This document shows positions 2,390-38,976 of a DNA stretch of 49,635 nt, piece by piece. Under the pieces are notes generated by a model that was given only the letters and a program-made list of their open reading frames with translations, ran no database searches and was not told the DNA's origin. Position numbers and translations under genes: made by a program. The DNA is from an uncultured Candidatus Saccharibacteria bacterium. GTDB taxonomy: Bacteria; Patescibacteriota; Minisyncoccia; Minisyncoccales; CAYVNG01. The stretch is taken from assembly GCA_964452875.1 (NCBI GenBank), contig CAYVNG010000003.1, positions 1 to 49,635 on the forward strand. The letters are read 5' to 3'. Positions within the stretch are counted from its first letter, which is position 1; the number at the start of each line of letters is the position of its first letter.

Positions 2390-3070
2390 ATGGAAGAAGA
2401 AAAAATCCTAACCCAAGCTGACATAGAGCACGAAATAAGGGCAGCTGAAATGGAAAACAGGCTGGCTGATTTCAGCAATAAAAGTTTCAGCAATTTTTTG
2501 CTGCTCGGAAAAGAAACGAACGTAGGGCTCAACTTGGAAGGAGCCAAGATAAAAGGTTCGGTCTCTTTGGGAGGAACAAAAATAGGAGGAGATTTGATTT
2601 TAAAAAACGCAACCCTTGGAGGCGCTTTTTATTTCGGAGACGGGGAGATCGGGGGGAATATCGACTTTTCCGGAGGAAAGATAAAAGGGGTGCTGAACAT
2701 GGTGGGAAGCAGAGTCAAGGGATCTTTGCTTTTTTCCGACCTTGAAGTGAACGGATTTTTAAGCCTGGCCAAAGCCAAAATCTCCCAGGACATAGATTTC
2801 AGGAGGATCAAGGTCAAGAACTCCACTTACGAAGGCCTCACCATATTAGGAGACCTTTATCTCAACCAGGCGATCATCCAGGGTAACATGGATATTACGG
2901 AAGGCGTGATCGACGGGAACCTCGACCTTTCTGTGATCTGCATCCAAAAGACAGTGGACCTCACTTCTGCCACGATCGGAAATCTTCTGTTTCTAAGGGA
3001 CGCGCTGATAAGGGGGAACCTGGTCATAGAGCACACAAAATACAAAAAGATAATAAGGCATTTCGTTTAA
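2390..3070 (+). CDS. beta-helix-type repeat protein (about 11-residue x-x-x-I-x-G-x-L-x-L/F units), unknown function
   Basis: Start trimmed to MEEEKILTQ. More than 14 tandem degenerate units are visible (GAKIKGSVSL, GGTKIGGDLIL, KNATLGGAFYF, GDGEIGGNIDF, SGGKIKGVLNM, VGSRVKGSLLF...). The stop lies 8 nt before dnaE. Confidence 0.55.
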   Translation: MEEEKILTQADIEHEIRAAEMENRLADFSNKSFSNFLLLGKETNVGLNLEGAKIKGSVSLGGTKIGGDLILKNATLGGAFYFGDGEIGGNIDFSGGKIKGVLNMVGSRVKGSLLFSDLEVNGFLSLAKAKISQDIDFRRIKVKNSTYEGLTILGDLYLNQAIIQGNMDITEGVIDGNLDLSVICIQKTVDLTSATIGNLLFLRDALIRGNLVIEHTKYKKIIRHFV

Positions 3071-3078
3071 GGAAGACC

Positions 3079-6000
3079 ATGAAGTTCACCCATCTGCACG
3101 TGCACAGCCATTACAGCCTGCTTGACGGCCTTCCCAAAATAGACCAGCTGATCGACAGCGCAAAGGAAAAGGGAATGGATTCCATAGCCCTCACCGACCA
3201 CGGCGTCCTGTACGGAGCCGTCGAATTCTACAAGAAAGCGAAAGAGAAAGGGATAAAGCCGATAATAGGCTGCGAAATATACCAGGCCGTTGAAAAAATG
3301 CAGCAAAAGCGGCCTAACATAGACAACCAGAGATTCCATCTGGTGCTTTTAGTTAAGGACAATAAAGGATACGAGAATCTGGTGAAGCTCATCACCCTGG
3401 CCCATCTTGAAGGGTTCTATTACAAGCCCAGGGTGGACGAAGACGCCTTGAGAGAGCACTCCGAAGGCCTTATCGCCCTTTCCGCCTGCCTGCAAGGCAA
3501 AATCCCCTATCTCATTTCGAAGAACAAAATCAAGGAAGCTGAAGAAGCGGCTTTGAACTACGAAAAGATTTTCGGAAAAGGAAACTTTTTCCTGGAAATC
3601 CAGGATCATCCGAAGATAAAAGAGCAGAAAAAGGTGAACCAGGCGATGATCCAGATGTCAAAAAAGCTGGACATCCCTTTGGTGGCCACCAACGATGTCC
3701 ACTATCTGAACGCCGATGACGCTGAAGCCCAGGACGTGCTCATGCTCATCAATACCGGATCTGATCCGAACGACCCTGAGAGGCTGACCATGAGAGAAGA
3801 CGATTTTTCCTTGAAATCCCCGGAGAAGATGGCGGAAGACTTCAAGGAAACGCCTGAAGCCCTTGAAAACACCCAGAAGATAGCTGAAGCTTGCGCCTTT
3901 GAGTTCGAGCTCGGAAAAACCAAGCTGCCTGAATTCGACGTTCCCGGCGATAAAACAGCGGACCAATATTTAAAGGAGCTCTGCTATGAAAGGATAGGAA
4001 AAAAGTTTCCGAAGCTGACGGAGGAAATAAAAACCAGGCTCGAGTACGAGCTTTCGATAATACAGCAGACAGGGTTCGCCTCCTATTTTTTGATCGTCCA
4101 AGACTTCGTCAACTGGGCCAAAAGCCAGAGGATAGTGGTGGGACCCGGAAGAGGGTCGGCTGCAGGCTCTTTGGTCTCTTACGTATTGAATATAACCAGC
4201 ATAGACCCTTTGAGATACAAGCTTCTGTTCGAAAGGTTCTTGAATCCGAACAGGGCGGCCGGGCTGCCGGATATAGACCTGGACTTCACTGACAGGAGGA
4301 GGGACGAGGTGATATCGTACGTTGCTGAAAAGTACGGGAAGGACAGGGTGGCTCAAATAATCACTTTCGGGACAATGGCGGCCAGGGCCGTGGTCAGGGA
4401 CGTGGGAAGAGCTTTGCAATACCCTTACAGCTATTGCGACCATCTGGCCAAGATGATCCCCTTCAGCTTCACTTTGGACCAGTCCTTGGAAAAAATAGAA
4501 GAGTTCTCCCAGATTTACGAAACAGACGAAAAGGCAAAAAAGCTGATCGACCTTGCCAAAAAACTGGAAGGGGTGGCCAGGCACGCTTCGACCCACGCCT
4601 GCGGCGTGGTGATCTCCAAAAACCCGCTCTCTGACATAGTGCCTCTGCAGCATCCGACCCAGGACGAAGACGGCATCGTCACCCAGTACGAGATGCACAC
4701 GATAGAGGATTTGGGGCTTTTGAAAATGGATTTTCTCGGCCTGAAAAACCTCACCACCATCGAAGACACCTTGAAAATGATCTACGCCATACACAAGGAA
4801 TCAATAGACATAGAAAAGATTCCCTTGGAGGACAAGAAAACTTTCAAACTCCTGAGGGACGGAAAGACGGTCGGCATATTCCAGCTTGAAAGCGCAGGCA
4901 TGCAAAGGTATTTAAGGCAGTTAAAGCCCACCGAGATGGAAGACGTCATCGCCATGGTCGCCCTTTACAGGCCTGGCCCCATACAGTTCATCCCTGAATA
5001 CATTGGAAGGAAATTCAAGAAAAAGAAGATAGAATACCTGCATCCGGATTTGGAGCCCATTTTGAAAAACACCCAGGGAATATGCATATATCAAGAGCAG
5101 CTCATGCAGATAGCCCAGAAAATGGCGGGCTTCACCTTGGGGGAAGCGGACGTGCTCAGAAAGGCGGTCGGAAAGAAGATACAGGCCCTTTTGGAATCCC
5201 AGAAGGAGAAGTTCATCTCCGGCATGGAAAAGAACAAGATAAGCAAAGGCACGGCCTCCGAGATATGGGAATGGATACTGCCTTTCGCCAAGTACGGGTT
5301 CAACAGAAGCCACAGCGCCTGTTATGCCATGATCGCCTACCAGACAGCGTACCTTAAAGCCCGCTATCCCTTGGAGTTCATGGCTTCCCTTCTGACTTCG
5401 GAAAAAGCTGACGTCGAAAGGATCGCCGTTTTGATAGAAGAATGCAAGAAAATGGGAATAGACGTGCTTCCTCCGGACATCAACGAAAGCTTCAGGAATT
5501 TTTCTGTCGTCCCGGGAGAAGGGAAAATAAGGTTCGGGCTTCTGGCCGTCAAGAACGTCGGCACGAACATAGTGGAATCGGTGGTCAAGGAAAGGAAGGA
5601 AAAAGGCAAGTTCTCCTCGATCGAGGATTTCATCTTGAGGATAAGCAGCAAGGACCTGAACAAAAAATCGATGGAAAGCCTCATTAAAGCCGGGGCCTTT
5701 GACAAGCTCGGTGAAAGGAACCAGCTGATAGAGAATATGGAAAAGCTCCTGGAATGGTCCAGAGAGGCCCAGAGAACGAAAAACAACGGCCAAAAAGGGC
5801 TCTTCGACAGCAAAACCTTCAATACCACCCTTATCCTGGCCAAAGCTCCGCTGGCCAAATCCTCAGACAAGCTGAAATGGGAAAAAGAGCTTTTGGGCCT
5901 GTACATCACCAGCCATCCTTTGGACCAGTACAAGGTCGTGCTGGAGAAGAACACCACCCCGATAGCCGACCTGGCGATAGCAGGATCCAGGAAATCGGTC

Positions 6001-29463: not shown

Positions 29464-30498
29464 ATGGAAAAAAATTGGGAAAAAATGAGGTCAGACAAAA
29501 TCCTCAAAGAAAATTTCATTTCATGCGGCAAAATCATTGATTTAATTCGCGTTTTTTTCAAAGAACAGGGATTTTTTGAAGCACAAACGCCAATTCTGGT
29601 AAGATGCGCCGGACAGGAACCATATCTTTCACCGTTTAAAGTGAACTTTACTAATGAAAAGAACGAAGAATTTCAAGGATTTTTGATAACTTCTCCAGAA
29701 TATTCCCTAAAAAAATTATTAGCGGCCGGTTTCGATAAAATTTTCGAACTGGTTAAAGTTTTCAGATCCAATGAAAGCTTCGGAGGCATACACAACCCCG
29801 AATTCACTATGCTTGAGTGGTACAGGGCAAATTCCGATTATAACCAGATGATGGAGGATATAGAACAACTAATCGTCTTTTTAGCCGAAAAGATAAAGAA
29901 TTCAAGGACCATTTCTTATCAAGGGGGAAAAATAGACCTCACTCCCCCCTGGCCCAGATTGACCGTCAGAAATTTATTCTTAGAATATGCCCGTATCGAT
30001 CTTGATAAGGCTCAAACCGTGGAAGATTTCAAAAAGCAAGCGAAGAATGAAAAATATTCCAAGTTTGACGATTGGAACGATATTTTCTATCTGGTTTTCT
30101 TAAATGAAATAGAACCAAATCTTCCGAAAGACAAGCCTGTTTTCGTCTGCGATTATCCCCTTCCTCAGGCTTCTTTATCGAAAAGGAAAAACGACTTTTA
30201 TGCGGAACGATTTGAAATGTTCATATCTGGAATGGAATTGGCAAACGCATTTTCCGAACTAGTTGATCCCAAAGAGCAATATGTCCGTTTCGAAGAAGAG
30301 CGCGTTCTTAGAAAAAAACTCGGCAAAGATGAAATACCGATTGACAAAGATTTCATTCATGCCTTAGAATTAGGAATTGCGCCGTCGGGCGGCATCGCTC
30401 TAGGAGTAGAGCGTCTTCAAATGCTTTTACTGGACGCAAAGGACATGAACGATATACTGCCCTTTCCGGCGAGTCAATTGTTTTCAGAAAATAAATGA
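29464..30498 (+). CDS. epmA: EF-P lysine-34 lysyltransferase (EpmA/PoxA/GenX-like; LysRS catalytic-core paralog)
   Basis: 344 aa. Class II motifs are present (GFFEAQTPILV; FRSNE...HNPEFTMLEWY; GIALGVERL) and there is no anticodon-binding domain. The gene sits immediately upstream of efp. Confidence 0.78.
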   Translation: MEKNWEKMRSDKILKENFISCGKIIDLIRVFFKEQGFFEAQTPILVRCAGQEPYLSPFKVNFTNEKNEEFQGFLITSPEYSLKKLLAAGFDKIFELVKVFRSNESFGGIHNPEFTMLEWYRANSDYNQMMEDIEQLIVFLAEKIKNSRTISYQGGKIDLTPPWPRLTVRNLFLEYARIDLDKAQTVEDFKKQAKNEKYSKFDDWNDIFYLVFLNEIEPNLPKDKPVFVCDYPLPQASLSKRKNDFYAERFEMFISGMELANAFSELVDPKEQYVRFEEERVLRKKLGKDEIPIDKDFIHALELGIAPSGGIALGVERLQMLLLDAKDMNDILPFPASQLFSENK

Positions 30499-30511
30499 CC
30501 GGAATAATATT

Positions 30512-31075
30512 ATGATTTCAACATCTGATTTTGAAAAAGGGATAATATTGAATATCGACGGCCAACCGTGGTTAATCACCGATTTTTCATATATGAATCC
30601 AGGAAAAGGCGGAGCTGTATACAGGACTAAGCTCAAGAATATCAAATCTGGAAAATTCATAAAAATGACTTTCAAATCGGGAGAGGAATTCGAAACGATG
30701 GAAAAGGAATATAAAAAGGCTATTTATCTGTACAGCGACAGGAGAAATTCGGTTTTTATAACTAATGATACAAAAGAAAGAATTTCTTTTCCTCTTGAAA
30801 ACACGCAAAATAAAATAAAATTCATCACCGGCAACTCCGAAGTGAATTTACTTTATATCGACGGGGAATTACTTTCAGTAGAAATTCCCATAAAAGTCGA
30901 TCTTAAGGTGGTTGAAGTCGAACAATCTATAAAAGGAAGCACAGTGGCCAACTTCATGAAAAAAGCTAAACTGGAAACCGGATTAGAAATTAGCGTACCG
31001 ATGTTTATAGAACAAGGAGATATAGTGCGGTTAAACACCGATTCGGGTGAATATACTGAAAGAGTGAGCAAATGA
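30512..31075 (+). CDS. efp: elongation factor P
   Basis: 187 aa, with the conserved loop YMNPGKGGAVYRTKLKN (Lys at the modified position). Confidence 0.93.
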   Translation: MISTSDFEKGIILNIDGQPWLITDFSYMNPGKGGAVYRTKLKNIKSGKFIKMTFKSGEEFETMEKEYKKAIYLYSDRRNSVFITNDTKERISFPLENTQNKIKFITGNSEVNLLYIDGELLSVEIPIKVDLKVVEVEQSIKGSTVANFMKKAKLETGLEISVPMFIEQGDIVRLNTDSGEYTERVSK

Positions 31076-31100
31076 AAATCCCGGCCTTGGCCGGGATTTT
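31075..31100. terminator. bidirectional terminator between the convergent efp and polyamine operon
   Basis: Sequence aaaatcccggcc-tt-ggccgggatttt. Confidence 0.7.
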
Positions 31101-32179
31101 CATTTACCCCTTTTGAATTCTACTCCTTCATTTTTTAATATGCCGATAATTTTCCTAAAAAGATGCTTTTCTTTCCCAATTTCTTCCATGAGGATAATCC
31201 CTTTCTTTATTTTTATCTCTTCCTTGAGTAAAAAATCCAGAACTGTTGCTGGCATCAAAGAGGTAATTTTTTGCATCGAATTTAATTTATCATTTTTTTT
31301 GGAAAAAATGGAAGCCTGCCAAAAAAAATTCTTTTGGCTTTTCCCGCCAATTTTAACGTAAATCGCGGTTGTGTTGTCGCTTTTTTCCAATGTCAATAAT
31401 TTTTCCGCCTGAGTTATATTCTCTTTTTTGAAAAAAGAATGATTTTTAAGGAATTGAAAAAAGTTGAAGAAGCCCACCGGCCTTATCACCCGGAAGCTAA
31501 GATTTTTGAGGCCGAGACTGTAAGGCAATGTGCTCCATTCGTCGACAAAATAGCTTTCGAAATTTCCCAAACCATCCAGTCTCTGTATTCTATAGCCGGA
31601 GAAAGGAGCCAACCTCATTTTTTCCCCTCGGCTGATCACCGTTGCATGATAAAGATGCTCTTCAATCAAATCGCTGAAAGACCAAGTAAAAGGGAAAAAA
31701 TGATTTTTCTTGACGGAAAGGGTGCCAGCCCCTATTTCAACCTCATCGTCTTTTTTGAAATTCCTCATGCCGAAACCTGCAATGAGATTAGTCAACCCCG
31801 GGGAAACGCCGCAGCCGGGAACCACTTTTATCCCTTTTTCTTCAATCTTTTTTTTATGCTTTAGATAAAAAGAAATCGGAACCACCGAAACGTCTATCAA
31901 ATCTTTTCCGTATTCCAAAGCCAATTCCAAGCCCCGTTTGCCGGATTGTTCCGGCAAGGCTCCGATTAAAAAATCGTATTTTTCTATCACTTGGACCCGT
32001 TCTGAATCAAAGACATCTCCTTTTAAAATTTTCACCCTGCTGGATCCCTTTAAACTATTTGCATCAAGGGAGAACAAGGCAATTTCAGAGATTGCCTTGT
32101 TCTTTTTGAGGTAATGGACTAATGCTCGGCCAATTTTCCCTCCTCCCAAGATTAAGACCTTTTTCCTTATAATCTCCAT
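31100..32179 (-). CDS. saccharopine dehydrogenase-family NAD(P) oxidoreductase (carboxyspermidine-DH/homospermidine-synthase-like context)
   Basis: 359 aa, with the Rossmann motif VLILGGGKIGRAL and the motif GCGVSPGLTNLIAG. It overlaps the end of speE. Confidence 0.6.
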   Translation of the reverse strand: MEIIRKKVLILGGGKIGRALVHYLKKNKAISEIALFSLDANSLKGSSRVKILKGDVFDSERVQVIEKYDFLIGALPEQSGKRGLELALEYGKDLIDVSVVPISFYLKHKKKIEEKGIKVVPGCGVSPGLTNLIAGFGMRNFKKDDEVEIGAGTLSVKKNHFFPFTWSFSDLIEEHLYHATVISRGEKMRLAPFSGYRIQRLDGLGNFESYFVDEWSTLPYSLGLKNLSFRVIRPVGFFNFFQFLKNHSFFKKENITQAEKLLTLEKSDNTTAIYVKIGGKSQKNFFWQASIFSKKNDKLNSMQKITSLMPATVLDFLLKEEIKIKKGIILMEEIGKEKHLFRKIIGILKNEGVEFKRGK

Positions 32180-33042
32180 ATCTCCGGCAGAACTAAGCTG
32201 GCTTTGTGGATTTCGGGAGAATAATATTTGAAACCAAATTTTTTCTGGATTTTTTTGAATCTTTCGCTTATTTTTGAAAAATTTGCTTTCTTCAGATCTA
32301 TTTTTTTCGAACCTCCGACAAAGAAATACTCACCGCAATGGTAAGATGGCATGCAGAATCTGAAAAGAGCGACAAACGGGAAAAACTCTCTTATCTTTTT
32401 AATGATAGGTTTGGCGAGATTATCAAAATCTAAGAAAGAAAATCCGAGAGTGATCATAATCCCGTTTGATTTGATAATTTTTAAAAGCTGTCTGTAAAAT
32501 CCATCCGAATACAAAGAATTTGAAAAGCCGTCAGAATTGAAATTGGTGCAATCTACAATGGCGACGTCGTAGATGTTTTTTTTACCTTTTATGAAGTTCT
32601 GGCCAGAGCAATTAAAAACGTTTACTCTTTTGTCTGAAAACGCGTTTCGGCAGACAAATTTAAGATATTTTTTTGATATTTTTATCACTTCTTTATCCAT
32701 TTCGACCAAATCGACTTTATCCACCGGATGCTTCAAAACTTCCCTCAAGACTCCCCCATCACCTCCTCCAATAATTAAGATTTTCTTTGGATTGGGATGG
32801 GAGAACAAAACGGGATGGGAAATCATCTCATGGTAGATAAATTCGTCTTTTTCGGAAAGTTCCACAATGCCTTCTAGACAAAAAACCCTTCCGTAAATCG
32901 GATTGTCAAAAATCAAAACATCCTGATAGGCTGTCTTGCCGCGAAAAACCAGCTTATCCATCAGAAAACAATGTTTTATTTTCTCAAACCTTTTCCCGGG
33001 AACCTTGTTTTCTGCGAACCATCTTTCTTTAGAGGTAAGCAT
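32167..33042 (-). CDS. speE: polyamine aminopropyltransferase (spermidine synthase family)
   Basis: 291 aa, with motifs YQDVLIFDNPIYGRVFCLEG and ILIIGGGDGGVLREVLKH. Confidence 0.85.
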   Translation of the reverse strand: MLTSKERWFAENKVPGKRFEKIKHCFLMDKLVFRGKTAYQDVLIFDNPIYGRVFCLEGIVELSEKDEFIYHEMISHPVLFSHPNPKKILIIGGGDGGVLREVLKHPVDKVDLVEMDKEVIKISKKYLKFVCRNAFSDKRVNVFNCSGQNFIKGKKNIYDVAIVDCTNFNSDGFSNSLYSDGFYRQLLKIIKSNGIMITLGFSFLDFDNLAKPIIKKIREFFPFVALFRFCMPSYHCGEYFFVGGSKKIDLKKANFSKISERFKKIQKKFGFKYYSPEIHKASLVLPEIWRL

Positions 33043-34183
33043 AAAAAGGTTTTTTGAATTTCACCTCTTTTATTTTCGAAGGCAAATAACTGAAGATGTA
33101 CAGGGAAGCGGCAAGTTTGGGAGATTTTTTGATGACTTCTTCATCGATCATCGACGCCAGTCTTCGAAAAATCTCTTCATCTTCCTTGTAAAGCTTGATA
33201 TAGGGATAAAATATTTTTCCCCTGATCAATTCTTTCGCAATCAAACCGTTTTTTGCGAAAAACTCATGCAGGGACAGAAATCTGTTCCCGATAGATTCCT
33301 CGCCGACCTCCAAAAAAGCCAAACCACCGTCTTTACCGAGCTGATTTAAGCCGAATTTTACGAATCCTTTTACCCCGTCGGCGGTATAAACGGGATTAGC
33401 CAAAAACCCGATGAATTTTCCAACACGGACATCTTTCCTGATGTCGACTTTTTTAGTTTCAATTTTCAAATTAAATTTTTTGGCCAGAAAATCAATCGTC
33501 GCCAAAAGCTGATCGTCGGCATCGATTACGACGCTTTCAAATCCAGGACAGATCAGTCCCATCACTATCGAAATGAAATCATCGTCCCCTACGAACAAAA
33601 ATTTTTTCTTCAGGGGAATCCTTTCTAAAATTTTATGAACCAGAAAAATCGCCGAACCCTGAGAAATGGGCATTTGATCCCATTGGCCTTTTACTTCAAA
33701 ACTCTTGAACTTTTCGAACAGCTTAACCATTGATTCCGAAGAACGGATTTTCACTTTAAGTTTTTCCTCCAGCAGATTTTTGATTTCTTCTTCTGTCAGC
33801 GGTTTTGGTATTATTTCCAATATTTCTTTATTCATATGGGTCACTTTGCCAGTTCTTCCTACTTTTATTAATTTGTTTTTTTCAAGGAAATAAAGGTAAG
33901 GCCAGAGTTTCCAATCTTCAGAGGAGTCCTTGAATATGAAATCGAAAACGTCTTTTGAATATAGAATATATTTCAGATTTTCGAGAAAATTAACGTAAGT
34001 AATCTTATAATACTGATCGTAAAATCTCCCTATTGTCGAATCGGACAACTTCAATTTTTTGAGGCTCGTGGAATTATTCTTGGCATCAAAAATAAAATTA
34101 TTCTTGTAGAAGGTGATGAATTTTTCGTAAATTTCTTCAAGTTTTTTTTCAGTCATGGCCTTATTTTTTATTATGGACGACAC
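33029..34183 (-). CDS. DUF43/BpsA-like aminopropyltransferase (branched-chain polyamine synthase family)
   Basis: 384 aa, with motifs FVGDDDFISIVMGL, VIDADDQLL and FLANPVYTADGVKGFV that resemble the DUF43 signature. Confidence 0.55.
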   Translation of the reverse strand: MSSIIKNKAMTEKKLEEIYEKFITFYKNNFIFDAKNNSTSLKKLKLSDSTIGRFYDQYYKITYVNFLENLKYILYSKDVFDFIFKDSSEDWKLWPYLYFLEKNKLIKVGRTGKVTHMNKEILEIIPKPLTEEEIKNLLEEKLKVKIRSSESMVKLFEKFKSFEVKGQWDQMPISQGSAIFLVHKILERIPLKKKFLFVGDDDFISIVMGLICPGFESVVIDADDQLLATIDFLAKKFNLKIETKKVDIRKDVRVGKFIGFLANPVYTADGVKGFVKFGLNQLGKDGGLAFLEVGEESIGNRFLSLHEFFAKNGLIAKELIRGKIFYPYIKLYKEDEEIFRRLASMIDEEVIKKSPKLAASLYIFSYLPSKIKEVKFKKPFYAYL

Positions 34184-34562
34184 CTCGAATTATTTCTTTC
34201 AATTCGATTTTTTTAGGATTATATTGTTCTTTTAAGTATTCCAAAGCTTTCAAAGGCTTAGCTTTGTCTCCGCAGGTAAAAATATCTATAGCCAAATAAT
34301 TGTATTCCGGCCAAGAATGAATGGAAATATGTGATTCCGCCAACAAAACGACCCCAGTGATTCCCCGAGGATTAAATTTGAAAGTCGAAACTTTTAACGG
34401 ATAACTTCCCGAATTATTTGCGGCGCCAATCAAAATTTTCTTTGTTTCAGCCGTGCTTTCTATTTCTTTTGCACCCCAAAATTCGGCAATCAGATGTATC
34501 CCTGCGTATTTTTTTTTTCTAAGACGGACCCATCGAATGGATCTCTTTGTTTTTAAAATCAT
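34161..34562 (-). CDS. speD: S-adenosylmethionine decarboxylase proenzyme, class 1 (pyruvoyl)
   Basis: 133 aa, with the self-cleavage motif LLAESHISIHSWPE. Confidence 0.85.
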   Translation of the reverse strand: MILKTKRSIRWVRLRKKKYAGIHLIAEFWGAKEIESTAETKKILIGAANNSGSYPLKVSTFKFNPRGITGVVLLAESHISIHSWPEYNYLAIDIFTCGDKAKPLKALEYLKEQYNPKKIELKEIIRGVVHNKK

Positions 34563-34749
34563 CGTTTTAAATCAATCGCTTACCCATAAATCGCTTAAGA
34601 TACGCAAATTCGTTTTGCGAGCCAAGCGCAAGGGCTTCCAATAATTAGGTTCATCACCTAAAAACAAAGAGTAAAAACAAAAAGCGATTGACTATTTATT
34701 TTAAAAGCGCTTATATGGGCTATTATATCACTTTCTAAAATAAATGCAA
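34563..34749 (-). promoter_or_regulatory. speD promoter (TTGCAT-16-TGaTATAAT) plus a ~155-nt leader with alternative pairings
   Basis: -35 at 34744-34749 and -10 at 34722-34727. The leader carries CAATCGCTT (34573-34581), AATCGCTTA x2 and the inverted AAGCGATTG (34682-34690). It also carries a CGCAA/TTGCG/CGCAA triplet (34603-34631). Confidence 0.35.
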
Positions 34750-34765
34750 ATTACCGGTTTTGTTT

Positions 34766-35674
34766 TCATTTATTTTTTACCAAGCTAAAATTATACGCCT
34801 TGTAGATATGTTCCGGATGGAATCTCTTTTTGAAGATGAGAAGCTTTTTATCACTTCCTCCGAAATCCAGTTTTTCAAATCCCGCTTTTTTCGCTTCAAA
34901 AAACATCTCCAAAGACATATATTCCCCTAAGCCGTCGTAATCGTAATCCCTAATGCTGATGCTCGGGTAAAAAGTCCTGGAATTGGGTATTCCCCAGCCG
35001 GCGAACAAGGCCGCCGGTTTTCCATTTATCAAAAACGCCTTGGATAATTCGCATCCGGGAAATCCTGCCTTGATAAATCTCAAGTAAGGTTCGCATTCCA
35101 TTATTTCCTCCCCGTCCTTGTGCTTTTTCCATTTCCAGACAAGGTCTTCCAATCCTTTTTTGTCGGCTTTGACGGCTTCAATCTTTTCTATCTGGTAATG
35201 CTTTGTGAAATAGTTCTTTGACTTCCTCAGCTTCCTCCATTTTTTCCCTTCAAGCTTTTCGTCGAATTTGGCCAGATCATAGACCGGCCACCAGGAAACG
35301 AAGGAAGGGACCGAGGCCTTCCATCCCAAATCCGGCGCCATGCCGAGGATACTTTTTCTCGCTTCCTTCTTGCAATCAAGGAACATTATTTTCGTGATAT
35401 CTTTCCTTCCGGAGATATATTCCATCATCTCTCGCAGGCAGGAAAGCTCTTTGACTTTATCGATAATCGGAGGAAAAGGAATCTTCCAGATGTGATCTTT
35501 AAAAAAAGTCAAAGCTCCCCCTCTGTCTCCGAAATCCAAATACACGGGCTTGTACTCTTCCGGCTGTTCGTCAAAAAAGAGGTAATAGATATTGTGATCC
35601 GGGAAATCCCCGTAATTTTTTAAGTCCAATTCGGCTTTCCGCCGAATTTTATCCTGATCTTCGATAATTTGCAT
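34766..35674 (-). CDS. DUF2156 / MprF C-terminal-domain-like (aminoacyl-tRNA-dependent transferase fold) protein
   Basis: Start trimmed to MQIIEDQ (302 aa). The motifs GKKWRKLRKSKNYFTKHYQIEKIE and LDFGGSDKKLLIFKKRFHPE resemble the LPG_synthase_C family. The assignment is from memory only. Confidence 0.45.
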   Translation of the reverse strand: MQIIEDQDKIRRKAELDLKNYGDFPDHNIYYLFFDEQPEEYKPVYLDFGDRGGALTFFKDHIWKIPFPPIIDKVKELSCLREMMEYISGRKDITKIMFLDCKKEARKSILGMAPDLGWKASVPSFVSWWPVYDLAKFDEKLEGKKWRKLRKSKNYFTKHYQIEKIEAVKADKKGLEDLVWKWKKHKDGEEIMECEPYLRFIKAGFPGCELSKAFLINGKPAALFAGWGIPNSRTFYPSISIRDYDYDGLGEYMSLEMFFEAKKAGFEKLDFGGSDKKLLIFKKRFHPEHIYKAYNFSLVKNK

Positions 35675-35714
35675 ATGTTTCCCTTTCAGACAGAGTTTAC
35701 CAAAAAAAGCCTTT

Positions 35715-35750
35715 TTTCCCAAATACAAAGCCCCGCTTTCAAGCGGGGCG
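35715..35750 (-). terminator. terminator after the PurD-like gene
   Basis: Minus strand reads GCCCCGC-ttgaaa-GCGGGGC followed by TTTGTATTT. Confidence 0.55.
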
Positions 35751-35765
35751 ACATTGAGGTTTTTT

Positions 35766-37064
35766 TCACAAATATCCCCAGTCCCGCAACTTCGCTTCCT
35801 CTGTCTTCCAGTGGTCCCCTATATCCAGCCTGTAAACGGCGTTGGGGATGATTATCCCCTTCATCCTGTCATAAGCGCACTTCTTGGCGGCTTCCATGGT
35901 TTTTCCGCTTCCATTTATGGTCAGAACGTACCCTGAGCCTCCAGTATAGTATTTGCCGTTCTTCTCGTAAGCTTGGGCCATTTTGACGTAAGCCCTGTTT
36001 TTATCGGTTATCCCTAAAATGGGAAGATCTCTTCCATATTTATTGTAAGAGATCTCGTAGGGCATGCCGGCTCCTCCCATTATCACTCCGACGGCGAAAT
36101 TATCGTACGTGTCGAAATGTTTCAAGGTCCCGTCGGCCACCTTTTTCAATATTTCCCCCCAGCTGGTTTTGTGAAGCTCGCCCTGTATGTCAACCTGGGG
36201 ATATCCGAATCTGGCCGTAAAATCAATCGGATAAGCTGCCTCCTTGGTGACGATGCAATTCAGATCTATGAATCCCCGGTAATTGGTCTTTGCTAGATAG
36301 GATTTTATTTTGGAAAGGGTCTCTTTAAAAAGCCTTCCTCCTGTTTCAGAATAATACATTGACGTCCCCATTTCCCCTGTCAACGGACCAAGCCCTCCGG
36401 TCAGAAAATGCTTGTGTTCGAAGCTGACGTTAACAGGCGAAGCGAATTCTTTGCCGTTGAAAAAGGCTCCTGTCGCCATTTCTATGCCGTCTATCAATTC
36501 TTGCAGGATGAAGTCCGCTTTTTGGCTCTTAGGTTGCATGATAAAGTGCAATTTTTTGTCCTTCGACCAGGACTCTTGAAGACTTTCAATCATCTTTATC
36601 AAATCAAACCCATCATCGGATTTACCCAAATAGCAGGTATAGCGCTCGGGCTGTCCTGAAAGTTTTATTACATATTTCTTCGGTCTTTTTTTTATGAATT
36701 CGATCCCTGCCTGGAAATTATTGAAGTGCCATGAAGGAGGGAGCTTCATTCCTGCTTCCCTCATTATTTTCTGGGCAAAAATCCTGTCGTTTTCCAGCCT
36801 GTCACCGAATCTGTTTCCTCCCACGACCAAATATCCTTTTTTCCTAAGGCTTTCAATATCCTCGCCGCAGTTAACGTCGTCAAAAACTATGACGTCAGCC
36901 CAATCTTTGTGGCTCTTCCAGTTATTGACTCTGGGCACAAGATTCCTGGCCACGTCCCGCATTTTCTTGTCGCGAATATAGAACTTTACTTGATGCCCCT
37001 CCATTTGGAGGCTTTGAGCCACTGTGGCGCTTTCTCCGAATATGGTTACAAAAAGAAATTTCAT
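35766..37064 (-). CDS. PurD (glycinamide-ribonucleotide synthetase)-like ATP-grasp ligase, non-canonical N-domain
   Basis: Start trimmed to MKFLFVT. It aligns by eye with E. coli PurD along its length (LENDRIFAQKIM, FEHKHFLTGGLGPLTGEMG, GFIDLNCIV...DFTARFGYPQ, AYDRMKGI...YRLDIG). The N-terminal GNGGREHA motif is absent. Confidence 0.72.
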   Translation of the reverse strand: MKFLFVTIFGESATVAQSLQMEGHQVKFYIRDKKMRDVARNLVPRVNNWKSHKDWADVIVFDDVNCGEDIESLRKKGYLVVGGNRFGDRLENDRIFAQKIMREAGMKLPPSWHFNNFQAGIEFIKKRPKKYVIKLSGQPERYTCYLGKSDDGFDLIKMIESLQESWSKDKKLHFIMQPKSQKADFILQELIDGIEMATGAFFNGKEFASPVNVSFEHKHFLTGGLGPLTGEMGTSMYYSETGGRLFKETLSKIKSYLAKTNYRGFIDLNCIVTKEAAYPIDFTARFGYPQVDIQGELHKTSWGEILKKVADGTLKHFDTYDNFAVGVIMGGAGMPYEISYNKYGRDLPILGITDKNRAYVKMAQAYEKNGKYYTGGSGYVLTINGSGKTMEAAKKCAYDRMKGIIIPNAVYRLDIGDHWKTEEAKLRDWGYL

Positions 37065-37069
37065 TTTTT

Positions 37070-37612
37070 TTAAGGAATGAATACCACGGCGGCCACTACT
37101 GAAGTCCATAGTCCGCCTTTGTCTCCCCTGGCAGTCTGGGTGACGTTTCTGGTATACACAATTTTTTTGCTCATTTTAAAGGCCTGCTTCCTATAGTCCC
37201 AGGCCTGTTCGGGATCGAAGGTCATCCCTAAGGTTGAAGCCAACATTGAAGCAGCCAAATCCTCGGCATAAGGACCGGCCGTGTCAGCGTTTTCTCCGAA
37301 AGAGTGGTATTCGGCTATGTATCCGTAATGCTTTTCTTCGGATGGAATAGCCGCCCCGACCGAAGCTGATATGAGACGATTAGGCTCATCAGTTTCATTT
37401 CTGGATATGACGCAAAAAGTTATTTCTCCAGGGTTCAAAAAAGGGACTCCTTTTTCCATACTCACTTTTTTGCAACGCGGCGGCAGAATGCTTGAAACCT
37501 GAACGATATTAAGATGGGCTATCCTGGCATCCCTCAAAGCGAGCTCAAACGACCTGAGTTTGTCCTTGTGGACCCCCACTCCTTTGGTGAAGAAAAATTT
37601 TTTGGGAACCAT
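37070..37612 (-). CDS. pdaD: pyruvoyl-dependent arginine decarboxylase
   Basis: 180 aa, beginning FFFTKGVGVHKDKLRSFELALRDARIAHLNIVQVSSILPP. Confidence 0.85.
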   Translation of the reverse strand: MVPKKFFFTKGVGVHKDKLRSFELALRDARIAHLNIVQVSSILPPRCKKVSMEKGVPFLNPGEITFCVISRNETDEPNRLISASVGAAIPSEEKHYGYIAEYHSFGENADTAGPYAEDLAASMLASTLGMTFDPEQAWDYRKQAFKMSKKIVYTRNVTQTARGDKGGLWTSVVAAVVFIP

Positions 37613-37623
37613 ATGTTTTATTT

Positions 37624-38010
37624 CTAGGCAGCAGGGCTTGTGCGCATTCCTCTCTTCCGCCCCCCTCGCTCCCTCTTTTCTTTTATTTTATTTTTATATT
37701 CTTTTAATCCGTCTTTCATCTCTTTTTGAACTTCGATGACGGCTTTCCTCACATCTTCTGCTTTTGCTTCCGTTCTCAAAATCTGCCCGGGAAGAGCTAT
37801 CTGGCATTCCGCCCTGAAAAAAGGGCCCTTCTTGTGATGAAGAGTTGTTTTTTCTATTTCCACCGCAGCTTTCAAATGATTGTTTGAGAATCGCGGATCA
37901 GAAGAACGAGAAACTCTCAAATATTTTTCGAGACCGGCGATTTTCTTTTCGACGAAATCCTTCGTCGATCCATCCAATACGATTTTGGTGGCCTTGATTG
38001 AAATTTTCAT
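37624..38010 (-). CDS. hpf: ribosome hibernation factor (HPF/RaiA, short form)
   Basis: 128 aa with the S30AE fold signature (MKISIKATKIVLD...FVEKKIAGLEKYL) and a basic tail. Confidence 0.8.
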   Translation of the reverse strand: MKISIKATKIVLDGSTKDFVEKKIAGLEKYLRVSRSSDPRFSNNHLKAAVEIEKTTLHHKKGPFFRAECQIALPGQILRTEAKAEDVRKAVIEVQKEMKDGLKEYKNKIKEKRERGGRKRGMRTSPAA

Positions 38011-38028
38011 TCCGAAAAAACAGTAATA

Positions 38029-38976
38029 TTATTTTATCTTTTCATTTCCAGGGAAATTGTCAATACTTTTTTTGGTTTCAAAACCCAGAAGAACGATTTC
38101 TTCTTTCAATTCTGTCTTAAATTTGTTTTTTACTTTTCTTTTAACAAGATTGATGAGTTCCAAGACGTCGTTTGCTTTGGCGTTTTTTTTGTTCAGTATA
38201 AAATTGGCATGCTTTTCAGATATTTCAGCTCCTCCCTTACTTTTTCCTTTCAGTTGGCAAGATTCTATCAGCTCTCCGGCTGATTTTTCGCCCGGATTCT
38301 TGAAAACGCTTCCGGCTGAAGGAAAATTCAACGGCTGGCTTTCTTTTTTCATTCTCAAATATTCCTCGGTTCTTTCTTTTATCTTCTTTCTGTCCCCTTT
38401 TTCAAGGCTCAATCTGGCTGAAAGGATTATCAGGTTCCTGTTTTTTTTGAAAATGCTCTCTCTGTAGCTGAAGCGACATTCTTTTCTCTTGAGAACGATC
38501 GTTTTGTTTTTCAAAACGTCCAGAACTTCAATATCAATGACGACGTCCTTCATCGACTTTCCAAAAGAGCCGGCGTTCCCCCTCAAAGATCCTCCCAAGG
38601 TTCCGGGAATAGCTGCTGCCCATTCCAAACCGGTCAAACTCTTCTCTTGCGCCTTCCTTGCCAAATATGATAAAGAAGCTCCTGCTTCAGCAGAAACGAT
38701 TTTCCCGTTTATTTTAATTTTCCCAAAATCCTGTTTTATCACCAGTCCTTTGAACCCTCTGTCGGAAACGAGAATGTTGCTGCCCTTGCCGAGCATGAAA
38801 AAAGGCAGTTTCATCTTCCTGGAAATTGAAACTGCTTTCGCCACGTCTTCTTTCCTTTTGGCTGAAAAAAAATATGCAGCTTTTCCGCCGATCTTGAAGG
38901 AAGTGTATTCGGCTAGAGAAACGTTCTTAGCTAATATCAGAGGCATTTTACTGATGCTGTCTCCCAACTTTTCCAT
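38029..38976 (-). CDS. murB: UDP-N-acetylenolpyruvoylglucosamine reductase
   Basis: 315 aa, with the FAD-binding motifs YTSFKIGGKAAYF and LGKGSNILV and a C-terminal MurB domain. Confidence 0.9.
   Translation of the reverse strand: MEKLGDSISKMPLILAKNVSLAEYTSFKIGGKAAYFFSAKRKEDVAKAVSISRKMKLPFFMLGKGSNILVSDRGFKGLVIKQDFGKIKINGKIVSAEAGASLSYLARKAQEKSLTGLEWAAAIPGTLGGSLRGNAGSFGKSMKDVVIDIEVLDVLKNKTIVLKRKECRFSYRESIFKKNRNLIILSARLSLEKGDRKKIKERTEEYLRMKKESQPLNFPSAGSVFKNPGEKSAGELIESCQLKGKSKGGAEISEKHANFILNKKNAKANDVLELINLVKRKVKNKFKTELKEEIVLLGFETKKSIDNFPGNEKIK

Follow-up and report, generated by a model that had tools for sequence, protein, structure and literature searches.

A ligase clade recruited to polyamine operons within an unnamed PurD-like ATP-grasp family

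A 49,635-nucleotide stretch of DNA from an uncultured Candidatus Saccharibacteria bacterium (GenBank assembly GCA_964452875.1, contig CAYVNG010000003.1, positions 1 to 49,635; hereafter, the window) encodes a 432-residue protein (35766-37064, minus strand; ATG 37064-37062, stop TGA 35768-35766) that resembles PurD, the glycinamide ribonucleotide (GAR) synthetase of purine synthesis, and whose gene directly follows pdaD, encoding an agmatine-forming, pyruvoyl-dependent arginine decarboxylase (37070-37612, minus strand; PvlArgDC 2e-60; TIGR00286 119.8 bits, cutoff 106.95). Our analysis indicates that this ligase is almost certainly not a GAR synthetase; it falls instead into an uncharacterised and very large family that is sister to PurD, within which its own clade has been recruited to polyamine operons. 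The reading that we prefer, at a probability of roughly 0.45, is that the protein would act as an ATP-dependent carboxylate-amine ligase acylating agmatine or a polyamine, with these substrates suggested by genomic context.

Homology of the ligase to PurD is far beyond chance. A profile of the family aligns with four canonical PurDs over residues 1-419 in hhalign (probability 99.9%, E = 7.6e-31), the ligase matches the PurD structure 2yw2 in the Protein Data Bank (PDB) at E = 8e-22, and Pfam detects GARS_A (6e-11) and GARS_C (2e-8) domains. No Pfam match to GARS_N was found in the ligase, and the PurD equivalog model TIGR00877 gives 110.7 bits, below its cutoff of 288, aligning only from residue 71. 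An AlphaFold2 model built from a 71-sequence alignment (pLDDT 92.8, pTM 0.90) displays a complete PurD-type N domain, and Foldseek comparison of this model with the PDB supports the presence of the four-domain N-B-A-C fold: the top 15 matches are all PurD (TM 0.74-0.80, 16-22% identity, E ~1e-30), followed by biotin carboxylases (TM ~0.6-0.65, 10-13% identity, E ~1e-18). The B domain bears an insertion at residues 168-180 (KDKKLHFIMQPKS; 36525-36563, minus strand) that is mostly absent in homologues of 421-424 aa (11 gap columns), with residues 171-180 modelled at pLDDT < 50.

In human GAR synthetase (GARS), the phosphoribosylamine (PRA) site comprises Arg13, Glu14, Asp295, and Arg385 (PMC2978367, PMC8449271), the equivalents in the C. 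neoformans enzyme being R48, E49, D338, and R427 (PMC8449271). The glycine site comprises Asp217, Arg292, Asp295, and Glu297 in the human enzyme, glycine is held by D212, R287, and E292 in A. aeolicus PurD, and, within the PROSITE signature PS00184 (R-[LF]-G-D-P-E), the Asp serves as base and amine contact and the Glu binds the glycine ammonium (PMC2978367, PMC8449271, PMC8880213). To these sites the ligase was related through a profile-profile alignment of the family with the four canonical PurDs (E. coli PurD numbering), with conservation counted in 221 family members.

On this alignment, the PRA contacts are all replaced. Residues 9-14 of the ligase read FGESAT in place of PurD GGREHA (37023-37040, minus strand, as for all residue ranges given here), with R11 becoming E11 and E12 becoming S12, while an 8-residue deletion takes out the PurD PGNAG loop. 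Residues 281-290 read DFTARFGYPQ in place of EFNCRFGDPE (36195-36224), i.e., E286 becomes D281, N288 becomes T283, R290 is kept as R285, D293 becomes Y288, and E295 becomes Q290; the ligase thereby presents RFGYPQ where PS00184 calls for a GDPE ending. Residues 377-381 read SGYVL in place of GGRVL (35922-35936), with R383, the C-domain counterpart of human Arg385, becoming Y379. PurD R11, E12, D293, E295, and R383 are lost throughout the family, ranking in no subgroup of the 221 members with the four commonest residues at their columns; Y288 is found in 183 of 221 members, position 290 is occupied by Q, T, or A, and position 379 by Y, V, A, or E. Of the three acids holding the glycine ammonium in PurD, two are replaced as well, and the third persists as an acid: residues 215-218 read FEHK for PurD QDHK (36411-36422), in which D214 becomes E216 and K216, the ATP/Mg lysine, is kept as K218.

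The ATP-grasp core, as far as alignment can tell, is kept. E216 and K218 are found in 219 and 216 of the 221 members, respectively, and both are invariant in alignment A1, as is the family-specific Glu231 (192 of 221 members) in the loop at residues 226-234 (GPLTGEMGT for PurD GPNTGGMG; 36363-36389). Column 281 holds Glu in 218 members and Asp in the window ligase, and at least 210 of the 221 members conserve each of K134, E216, K218, E/D281, R285, and the family-specific D267 and N269. The ATP-binding lysines, the Mg-binding acidic residue(s), and the acyl-phosphate Arg that typify the ATP-grasp superfamily are therefore in place. The ligase would thus be a catalytically competent-looking ATP-grasp enzyme, with its PRA site gone and its glycine site altered, for which acyl-phosphate ligase chemistry is plausibly retained because the catalytic core is intact. 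Alongside the loss of the two PRA-site arginines, conserved acidic or aromatic residues occur in the family at D62, D63, E231, Y288, and Y379, joined by E11 in the clade closest to the window ligase; this change in predicted pocket charge fits a cationic amine acceptor.

These results bear out what an initial annotation of the locus had observed, and in part its interpretation; it had described a stand-alone PurD homologue, translationally coupled to pdaD, that lacks the PRA-binding N-terminal motif, probably keeps carboxylate-plus-amine ligase chemistry, and takes a changed amine acceptor, possibly agmatine or a polyamine. The peptides it quoted (MKFLFVTIFGESATVAQSL at the N-terminus, FEHKHFLTGGLGPLTGEMG, TARFGYPQ, and YRLDIG) are all present in the translation, its E. 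coli PurD comparison strings agree with purD of NC_000913.3, and the ligase ATG stands exactly 5 nt past the pdaD stop (TAA at 37072-37070, then an AAAAA spacer at 37065-37069, minus strand). The description as stand-alone holds within the window, where Pfam and NCBIfam annotation of the main open reading frames (ORFs) found no pur gene, including purF, purN/T, purL, and purM; with the PRA contacts replaced in the alignment as well, the view that this is not an ordinary purD is upheld, and the retention of ligase chemistry is plausible given the predicted core. The missing N-terminal motif requires some nuance: GGREHA is indeed changed and PGNxG lost by deletion, yet the AlphaFold model shows a complete N domain around them. 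Where the initial annotation probably did not go far enough is in keeping glycine and changing only the amine, since the glycine site is altered too (D293 to Y, E295 to Q, D214 to E).

The broader family, membership in which had escaped that first reading, is defined by the signature FEHK, GPxTGEMGT, [LI][ED]FTxRFGYP, and YRxDIGxxW...WGYL, by a length of ~420-440 aa, and by the presence of GARS_A and GARS_C without GARS_N, all of which are features of the window ligase. A word-index search returned 1607 homologues, of which the best 120 all carry GARS_A and GARS_C without GARS_N (349-929 bits). Retrieval by the motifs FEHK, GPxTGEMGT, and EFTxRFGY confirmed members in at least 592 species genomes; these encompass DPANN archaea (Micrarchaeota, Woesearchaeota, Pacearchaeota, Aenigmatarchaeota, and Nanoarchaeia) as well as bacteria from Patescibacteria, Omnitrophota, Acidobacteriota, Gemmatimonadota, Steroidobacteraceae, Planctomycetota, Bdellovibrionota, and others, with many soil phyla among them. 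A profile search of 1.84 billion representative sequences gave up to 1024 clusters (50% identity) at E <= 1e-30, a figure to be read as a ceiling since some canonical PurDs may pass this threshold too, with the best 150 scoring 285-684 bits. Public sources call members "phosphoribosylamine--glycine ligase" or, under the NCBI name, [quoted passage not shown]; neither NCBIfam nor the annotations of homologues yielded a curated family covering them. Our literature search found no paper on the family, the nearest mention being by Brown et al. 2011 (PMC3261824), who ruled out as GAR synthetases the "extra" PurD-like proteins of two haloarchaea, rrnAC0307 and Hlac_1553, which are possible members.

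A side observation concerns inteins, with 14 family proteins (P0004, P0121-P0123, P0127, P0139, P0161, P0171, P0174, P0190, P0214, P0234, P0235, and P0246) carrying inserts of 240-354 aa; P0004 and P0214 match LAGLIDADG_3, and P0123 bears two inserts. As mapped, the insertions interrupt at least four different catalytic motifs (GP|xTGEMG, GEMG|T, IDLN|C, and LEFT|xRFGYP). Intein hotspots are usual in strongly constrained proteins, often those of nucleotide metabolism.

It is the gene neighbourhood of the closest relatives that points to a substrate. The close clade, at 55-79% identity, was found at eight distinct loci (the window, L001, L002/L003, L108, L004, L092/L093, L105, and L106/L107), and in all eight a gene for a pyruvoyl-dependent decarboxylase lies directly upstream of the ligase gene. 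Together with a setting of speD, speE, agmatinase-like, and bpsA-like genes, this makes the link to agmatine and polyamines much stronger than the initial annotation could show, with the identity of the acceptor suggested by gene context. The upstream gene is pdaD in the window, L001, L002/L003, and L108, and an AdoMet_dc-like gene in L004 (1793-2194), L092/L093 (L092 6323-6715), L105 (1373-1765), and L106/L107 (L106 2364-2714). The AdoMet_dc-like proteins have ~27% identity to the SpeD protein of the window and reach only 30-47 bits where the S-adenosylmethionine decarboxylase model asks for 75.65, with the E-S-S/H self-cleavage motif kept; judging by sequence, they may be decarboxylases of another specificity, e.g., for arginine, that have displaced PdaD. 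An arginine decarboxylase derived from S-adenosylmethionine decarboxylase is known in Crenarchaeota.

A second constant element, likewise absent from the initial annotation, is a gene for a DUF2156/MprF-type aminoacyl-tRNA transferase-like protein (hereafter, DUF2156-like), found downstream of the ligase in all eight close-clade loci and adjacent to it in six of them; in the window, it begins 91 nt downstream. In the window, L001, and L002/L003, the order is HPF, PdaD, ligase, DUF2156-like, continuing in the window with SpeD, a BpsA_C-like protein, SpeE, and a saccharopine-dehydrogenase-like protein. L108 has the order PdaD, ligase, DUF2156-like (37% identical to that of the window), an agmatinase-family ureohydrolase (2714-3517; TIGR01230 161.5 bits, cutoff 174.3), and SpeD and SpeE fused into one protein of 418 aa (SpeD::SpeE; 3655-4911; AdoMet_dc plus Spermine_synth). 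In L004, L092/L093, and L106/L107, the AdoMet_dc-like gene is followed by two ligases and the DUF2156-like gene, and in L105 by three ligases and the DUF2156-like gene, such that a close-clade module contains one, two, or three tandem ligase copies. The two paralogue types of tandem ligase differ at positions 8-10, 142, 219, and 228, and share E11, S12, Y288, Q290, and Y379.

Spacing between pdaD and the ligase gene is tight wherever the two are paired, with 5 nt in the window, a 4-nt overlap in L001, a 4-nt gap in L002, and a 12-nt gap in L108; in L001, pdaD, ligase, and the DUF2156-like gene are packed together with the 4-nt overlap followed by a 5-nt gap. The flanks vary from locus to locus (MurB and an O-antigen ligase; SecA; a cytidylyltransferase; a Mur ligase and FemAB), and since these flanking genes differ, the module appears to have been kept through rearrangement. 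HPF and MurB were considered as functional partners and dropped, being present in only four of the eight close-clade loci. Within the ligase itself, the close clade has E11, S12, and Q290 where distant members have L, I, and T, respectively, and the window ligase possesses the close-clade set.

In the window, the DUF2156-like partner is a soluble protein of the MprF-synthase type with a tandem GNAT architecture (34766-35674, minus strand; LPG_synthase_C 2.2e-12), its ATG at 35674 being preceded by AAAGGGAAA; L001-L004, L092, L105, L106, and L108 each have an orthologue of it on the downstream side of the ligase. The protein has no membrane domain. Its AlphaFold2 model is of moderate confidence (pLDDT 76.5); Foldseek matches this model first to MprF/aaPGS domains, then to FemX, and then to the tRNA-dependent peptide synthases Sba18/Sbb17, at 12-16% identity. 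MprF/aaPGS, FemX, and Sba18/Sbb17 transfer an aminoacyl group from tRNA onto an amine or hydroxyl. From its modelled fold, the partner is thus a probable aminoacyl-tRNA-dependent aminoacyl transferase. A word-index search with this protein retrieved at least four homologous proteins, and neither it nor the ligase has a match in PHROGs.

Taken together, these elements suggest the following sequence of events. The ligase would bind MgATP and phosphorylate a small carboxylate to an acyl phosphate, much as PurD does with glycine; this acyl phosphate would then be attacked by the primary amine of PdaD-made agmatine, or of an aminopropylated derivative, to yield an N-acyl agmatine or polyamine. The DUF2156-like partner would add an aminoacyl group from aminoacyl-tRNA, which would make an acyl- or peptidyl-polyamine conjugate the product of the pathway, and tandem ligase paralogues could add further units or form hetero-oligomers. 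Of all this, the data show the fold, the family membership, the disappearance of PurD's substrate contacts, the intact core, and the conserved operon; that the protein works as a ligase, which amine and which acid it uses, and that it cooperates with the partner are what we infer. A wider proposal, which we regard as doubtful, is that the module constitutes a hitherto undescribed, ribosome-independent pathway to an acyl- or oligopeptidyl-agmatine or polyamine conjugate serving as a primary metabolite of small-genome Patescibacteria, and that the whole family, in hundreds of DPANN, candidate phyla radiation (CPR), and soil-bacterial species and in a phage branch located in the virion/DNA-ejection module, forms a PurD-derived, amine-acylating ATP-grasp class for cationic amines.

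Several observations weigh against an acylating role on agmatine or polyamines. No polyamine genes were found in 80 distant loci (38-43% identity) with flanks of up to 10 kb, and clustering of all ORFs within 6 kb across 89 loci revealed no neighbour conserved family-wide, including none in the 80 distant loci; because of these 80 loci, the polyamine link may be a clade-specific recruitment, or the family may have a general function that has nothing to do with polyamines. It is these ~40%-identity relatives without polyamine context that the initial annotation did not take in. The close-clade loci are moreover related to one another at 55-79% identity, so part of their synteny is inherited and not independently selected. 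A terminator-like hairpin stands in the window between pdaD plus ligase and the genes from DUF2156-like through speD, bpsA, and speE. The PurD Mg-coordinating Asn (N288) is Thr (T283) throughout the family and the B-loop GLAAGKG is not conserved, and the argument from pocket charge is drawn from alignment as opposed to coordinates.

The same facts favour the strongest alternative, that the family has a function unrelated to polyamines and that the operon position reflects co-regulation or drift. Beyond the 80 distant loci lacking either a polyamine gene within 10 kb or a conserved neighbour, this explanation draws on the span of the family across archaea, bacteria, and phages, and on active-site residues that are largely common to the close clade and to distant members. 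We nonetheless hold it unlikely, in that decarboxylase, ligase, and DUF2156-like genes remain together in all eight close-clade operons despite changing flanks, the pdaD-linked spacing ranges only from a 4-nt overlap to a 12-nt gap, tandem duplication of the ligase has occurred inside the module, and the L108 ligase lies between pdaD and an agmatinase-family gene; in addition, the close-clade specificity residues E11, S12, and Q290 are consistent with a changed substrate relative to the distant L, I, and T.

Alternatively, agmatine or a polyamine might be joined to a macromolecular carboxylate, be it a protein Glu or C-terminus, as with RimK, or a peptidoglycan precursor, e.g., at the D-Glu alpha-carboxyl. 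In support of such a target, the module has cell-wall genes beside it, namely murB (window, L001-L003) or, in L092, genes for a Mur ligase and FemAB, the fold of the partner is shared with FemX and MprF, which act on cell-envelope precursors, and phage members of the family sit in a virion structural module, with one portal-Mu-F fusion hinting at protein substrates there; in some bacteria, polyamines are covalently bound to peptidoglycan. This seems rather improbable, however, as the nearest fold relative, PurD, activates a very small acid, as do PurT, PurK, and biotin carboxylase, the family abounds in DPANN archaea, which are without peptidoglycan, and the eight operons do not all keep these cell-wall genes beside them.

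Less probable again is an enzyme of the carboxylase type (PurK, biotin carboxylase) or a PurT-like enzyme, in which bicarbonate or formate would be activated and the amine N-carboxylated or N-formylated. Biotin carboxylases are the next structural matches after PurD, and the acidic residues for the glycine ammonium are lost, which makes an acid without an amino group plausible; on the other hand, PurD is much closer in sequence and fold (E ~1e-30 against 1e-18, TM 0.8 against 0.65), the window context contains no biotin carrier or folate genes, and the position that grips the amine of glycine in PurD is conserved here as E216.

Finally, a genuine but divergent GAR synthetase, joining glycine to PRA, is scarcely credible: PurD is the closest homologue and the closest structure, and several public sources give family members its enzyme name, but the TIGR00877 score is far too low (110.7 against 288 bits), PS00184 is not matched, the window contains no pur genes, the family as a whole has lost R11, E12, D293, R383, and the PGNxG loop along with D293 and E295 of the glycine site, its members occur also in phages and in large-genome Acidobacteriota, and comparable haloarchaeal proteins were rejected on the same criteria by Brown et al. 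2011 (PMC3261824).

With acylation of agmatine or a polyamine retained as the preferred function, the remaining features of the window can be considered in turn. A longer ligase ORF is possible from 37109, overlapping pdaD, yet 29 close homologues begin with MKFLFV, and for this reason we take 37064 as the true start. The public gene call, P0001, is 398 aa long and N-terminally truncated, having missed the conserved N-terminal strand and loop (MKFLFV...); the region absent from this call is the very part that tells the PurD-like family apart from PurD. The hairpin mentioned above (35730-35749, minus strand; GCCCCGCTT-GAA-AGCGGGGC, followed by the T-rich TTTGTATTTG) has an 8-bp stem with 7 GC pairs, lies 17 nt past the ligase stop, and is the best terminator-like site in a scan of 34000-38400. 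Due to this hairpin, pdaD and the ligase gene may form a transcription unit of their own in the window, with the genes from DUF2156-like to speE expressed via read-through or from a separate start.

Downstream of the DUF2156-like gene, all on the minus strand, lie speD, encoding S-adenosylmethionine decarboxylase (34161-34562; TIGR03330 124.8 bits against a cutoff of 75.65); a gene for a BpsA_C-type aminopropyltransferase-like protein of the branched-chain polyamine synthase family (33029-34183; BpsA_C 2.5e-20; PDB 5xnc, an N4-bis(aminopropyl)spermidine synthase, 7.5e-6); speE, encoding a polyamine aminopropyltransferase (32167-33042; NF002010 267.1 bits against a cutoff of 260); and, at the end of the cluster, a gene for a saccharopine-dehydrogenase-like oxidoreductase (31100-32179; Sacchrp_dh_NADP and Sacchrp_dh_C; PDB 3abi, P. 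horikoshii PH1688, 4.9e-28). Two of these genes, those for the saccharopine-dehydrogenase-like and BpsA_C-type proteins, are less usual in such a cluster. The 384-aa BpsA_C-type protein contains only the catalytic domain (residues 163-334), its long N-terminal region being without a Pfam match. Neither an agmatinase nor an agmatine deiminase was found in the 49.6-kb window. Adjoining the polyamine cluster at 29464-31075 are genes for EF-P and for EpmA/GenX (TIGR00462, 327.6 bits, cutoff 286.9); no lysine 2,3-aminomutase (EpmB) was found among the window ORFs scanned.

Among the distant members, neighbours are confined to sub-clades, each seen in 4-6 loci: a DUF1749 alpha/beta-hydrolase, a MiaB-like radical SAM protein, a HIT protein, a class-III aminotransferase, and an M20-like protein. 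In five distant loci (L022, L036, L047, L054, and L067), the gene for the DUF1749/S33-type alpha/beta-hydrolase begins 18 nt before the ligase stop, and the MiaB-like radical-SAM gene is located nearby in loci overlapping those with the hydrolase. The M20-like amidohydrolase belongs to a Gemmatimonadales sub-clade and is adjacent to the ligase in two of four loci, and the class-III aminotransferase lies 77-91 nt upstream of the distant ligase in two of six. An archaeal metagenome-assembled genome carries two tandem distant-type ligases (L065, 4427-7085), and tandem duplication is hence not limited to the polyamine-operon clade.

The family also has a viral branch. A tblastn search of GenBank phages found one true member, in MW202796.1; the other matches were set aside as resembling canonical PurD. 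Most of these come from metagenomic "phage" entries that are unverified, one comes from a Salmonella entry that carries the PurD annotation, and three such matches (L101-L103) carry GGREHA. The member in MW202796.1 (L104, 6001-7332) is an unannotated 443-aa gene product within a complete 43.8-kb Caudoviricetes genome, and joins 42 IMG/VR contigs (L109-L150) with members at 24-39% identity. In many of these viral contigs, the ligase gene sits among those for a DNA-ejection protein (phrog_598), two proteins of no assigned function (of 468 aa and 580 aa), and a 392-aa protein whose gene has a 4-nt overlap with that of the ligase, with head-closure, tail-fibre, and lysozyme genes in the vicinity; one 1236-aa protein (P0166) has the ligase fused between phage portal and Phage_Mu_F domains. 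This arrangement suggests a virion-associated or injected ATP-grasp enzyme in the viral branch.

These findings carry consequences for genome annotation and for polyamine biology. The widespread label "phosphoribosylamine--glycine ligase" in DPANN and CPR genomes falsely implies a remnant of purine synthesis, and metabolic reconstructions rely on such calls; what it covers is a large, conserved, uncharacterised offshoot of a textbook enzyme. The polyamine operons of the close clade afford the first concrete and testable substrate hypothesis for this PurD-like family. Polyamine metabolism in Patescibacteria is poorly known, and a polyamine conjugate dependent on both tRNA and an ATP-grasp enzyme, if true, would constitute new polyamine chemistry.

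Compared with known systems, the ligase is closest to PurD itself (EC 6.3.4.13; TIGR00877; PDB 1gso, 2yw2, 2ys6, 2qk4), with which it shares the full-length N-B-A-C ATP-grasp architecture, the motifs xHK, GPxTGxMG, RFG, and YRxDIG, the Arg that stabilises the acyl phosphate, and, probably, two-step acyl-phosphate chemistry. It differs from PurD in possessing the new invariant residues E231, D267, and N269, and in its window context of polyamine genes as opposed to purine genes. The haloarchaeal rrnAC0307 and Hlac_1553 (PMC3261824) are alike by description, in that they have no GARS_N, lack the Asp of R[LF]GDPE, and display a divergent N-terminal loop, and they co-exist with a real PurD; in a comparison likewise by description only, they are said to lack Mg-binding sites, whereas E/D281 is retained in the PurD-like family, alongside D267 and N269. 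A related fold is also seen in PurT, PurK, and biotin carboxylase, which pass formate or bicarbonate through an acyl or carboxy phosphate to an amine nitrogen, but these are much more distant and differ in C-terminal domain and substrates.

Formation of an amide bond between a carboxylate and a polyamine, ATP-dependent and via an acyl phosphate, is the business of glutathionylspermidine/trypanothione synthetase and of gamma-glutamylpolyamine synthetase (PuuA). These resemble the ligase only in its proposed reaction and are not homologous to it at the family level; neither GSP_synth nor glutamine-synthetase gave a Pfam match in the ligase at E <= 0.01. For the DUF2156-like partner, a tandem-GNAT fold is held in common with the streptothricin-type synthases Sba18/Sbb17 and with MprF/FemX. 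MprF differs in having a membrane domain, which is absent from the partner, and the Sba18/Sbb17 pathways differ in their setting, as the window shows primary polyamine genes in a reduced genome and none of the features of a natural-product cluster. Side by side, the DUF2156-like partner and the ATP-grasp ligase would provide two ribosome-independent, amide-forming routes that converge on one amine scaffold.

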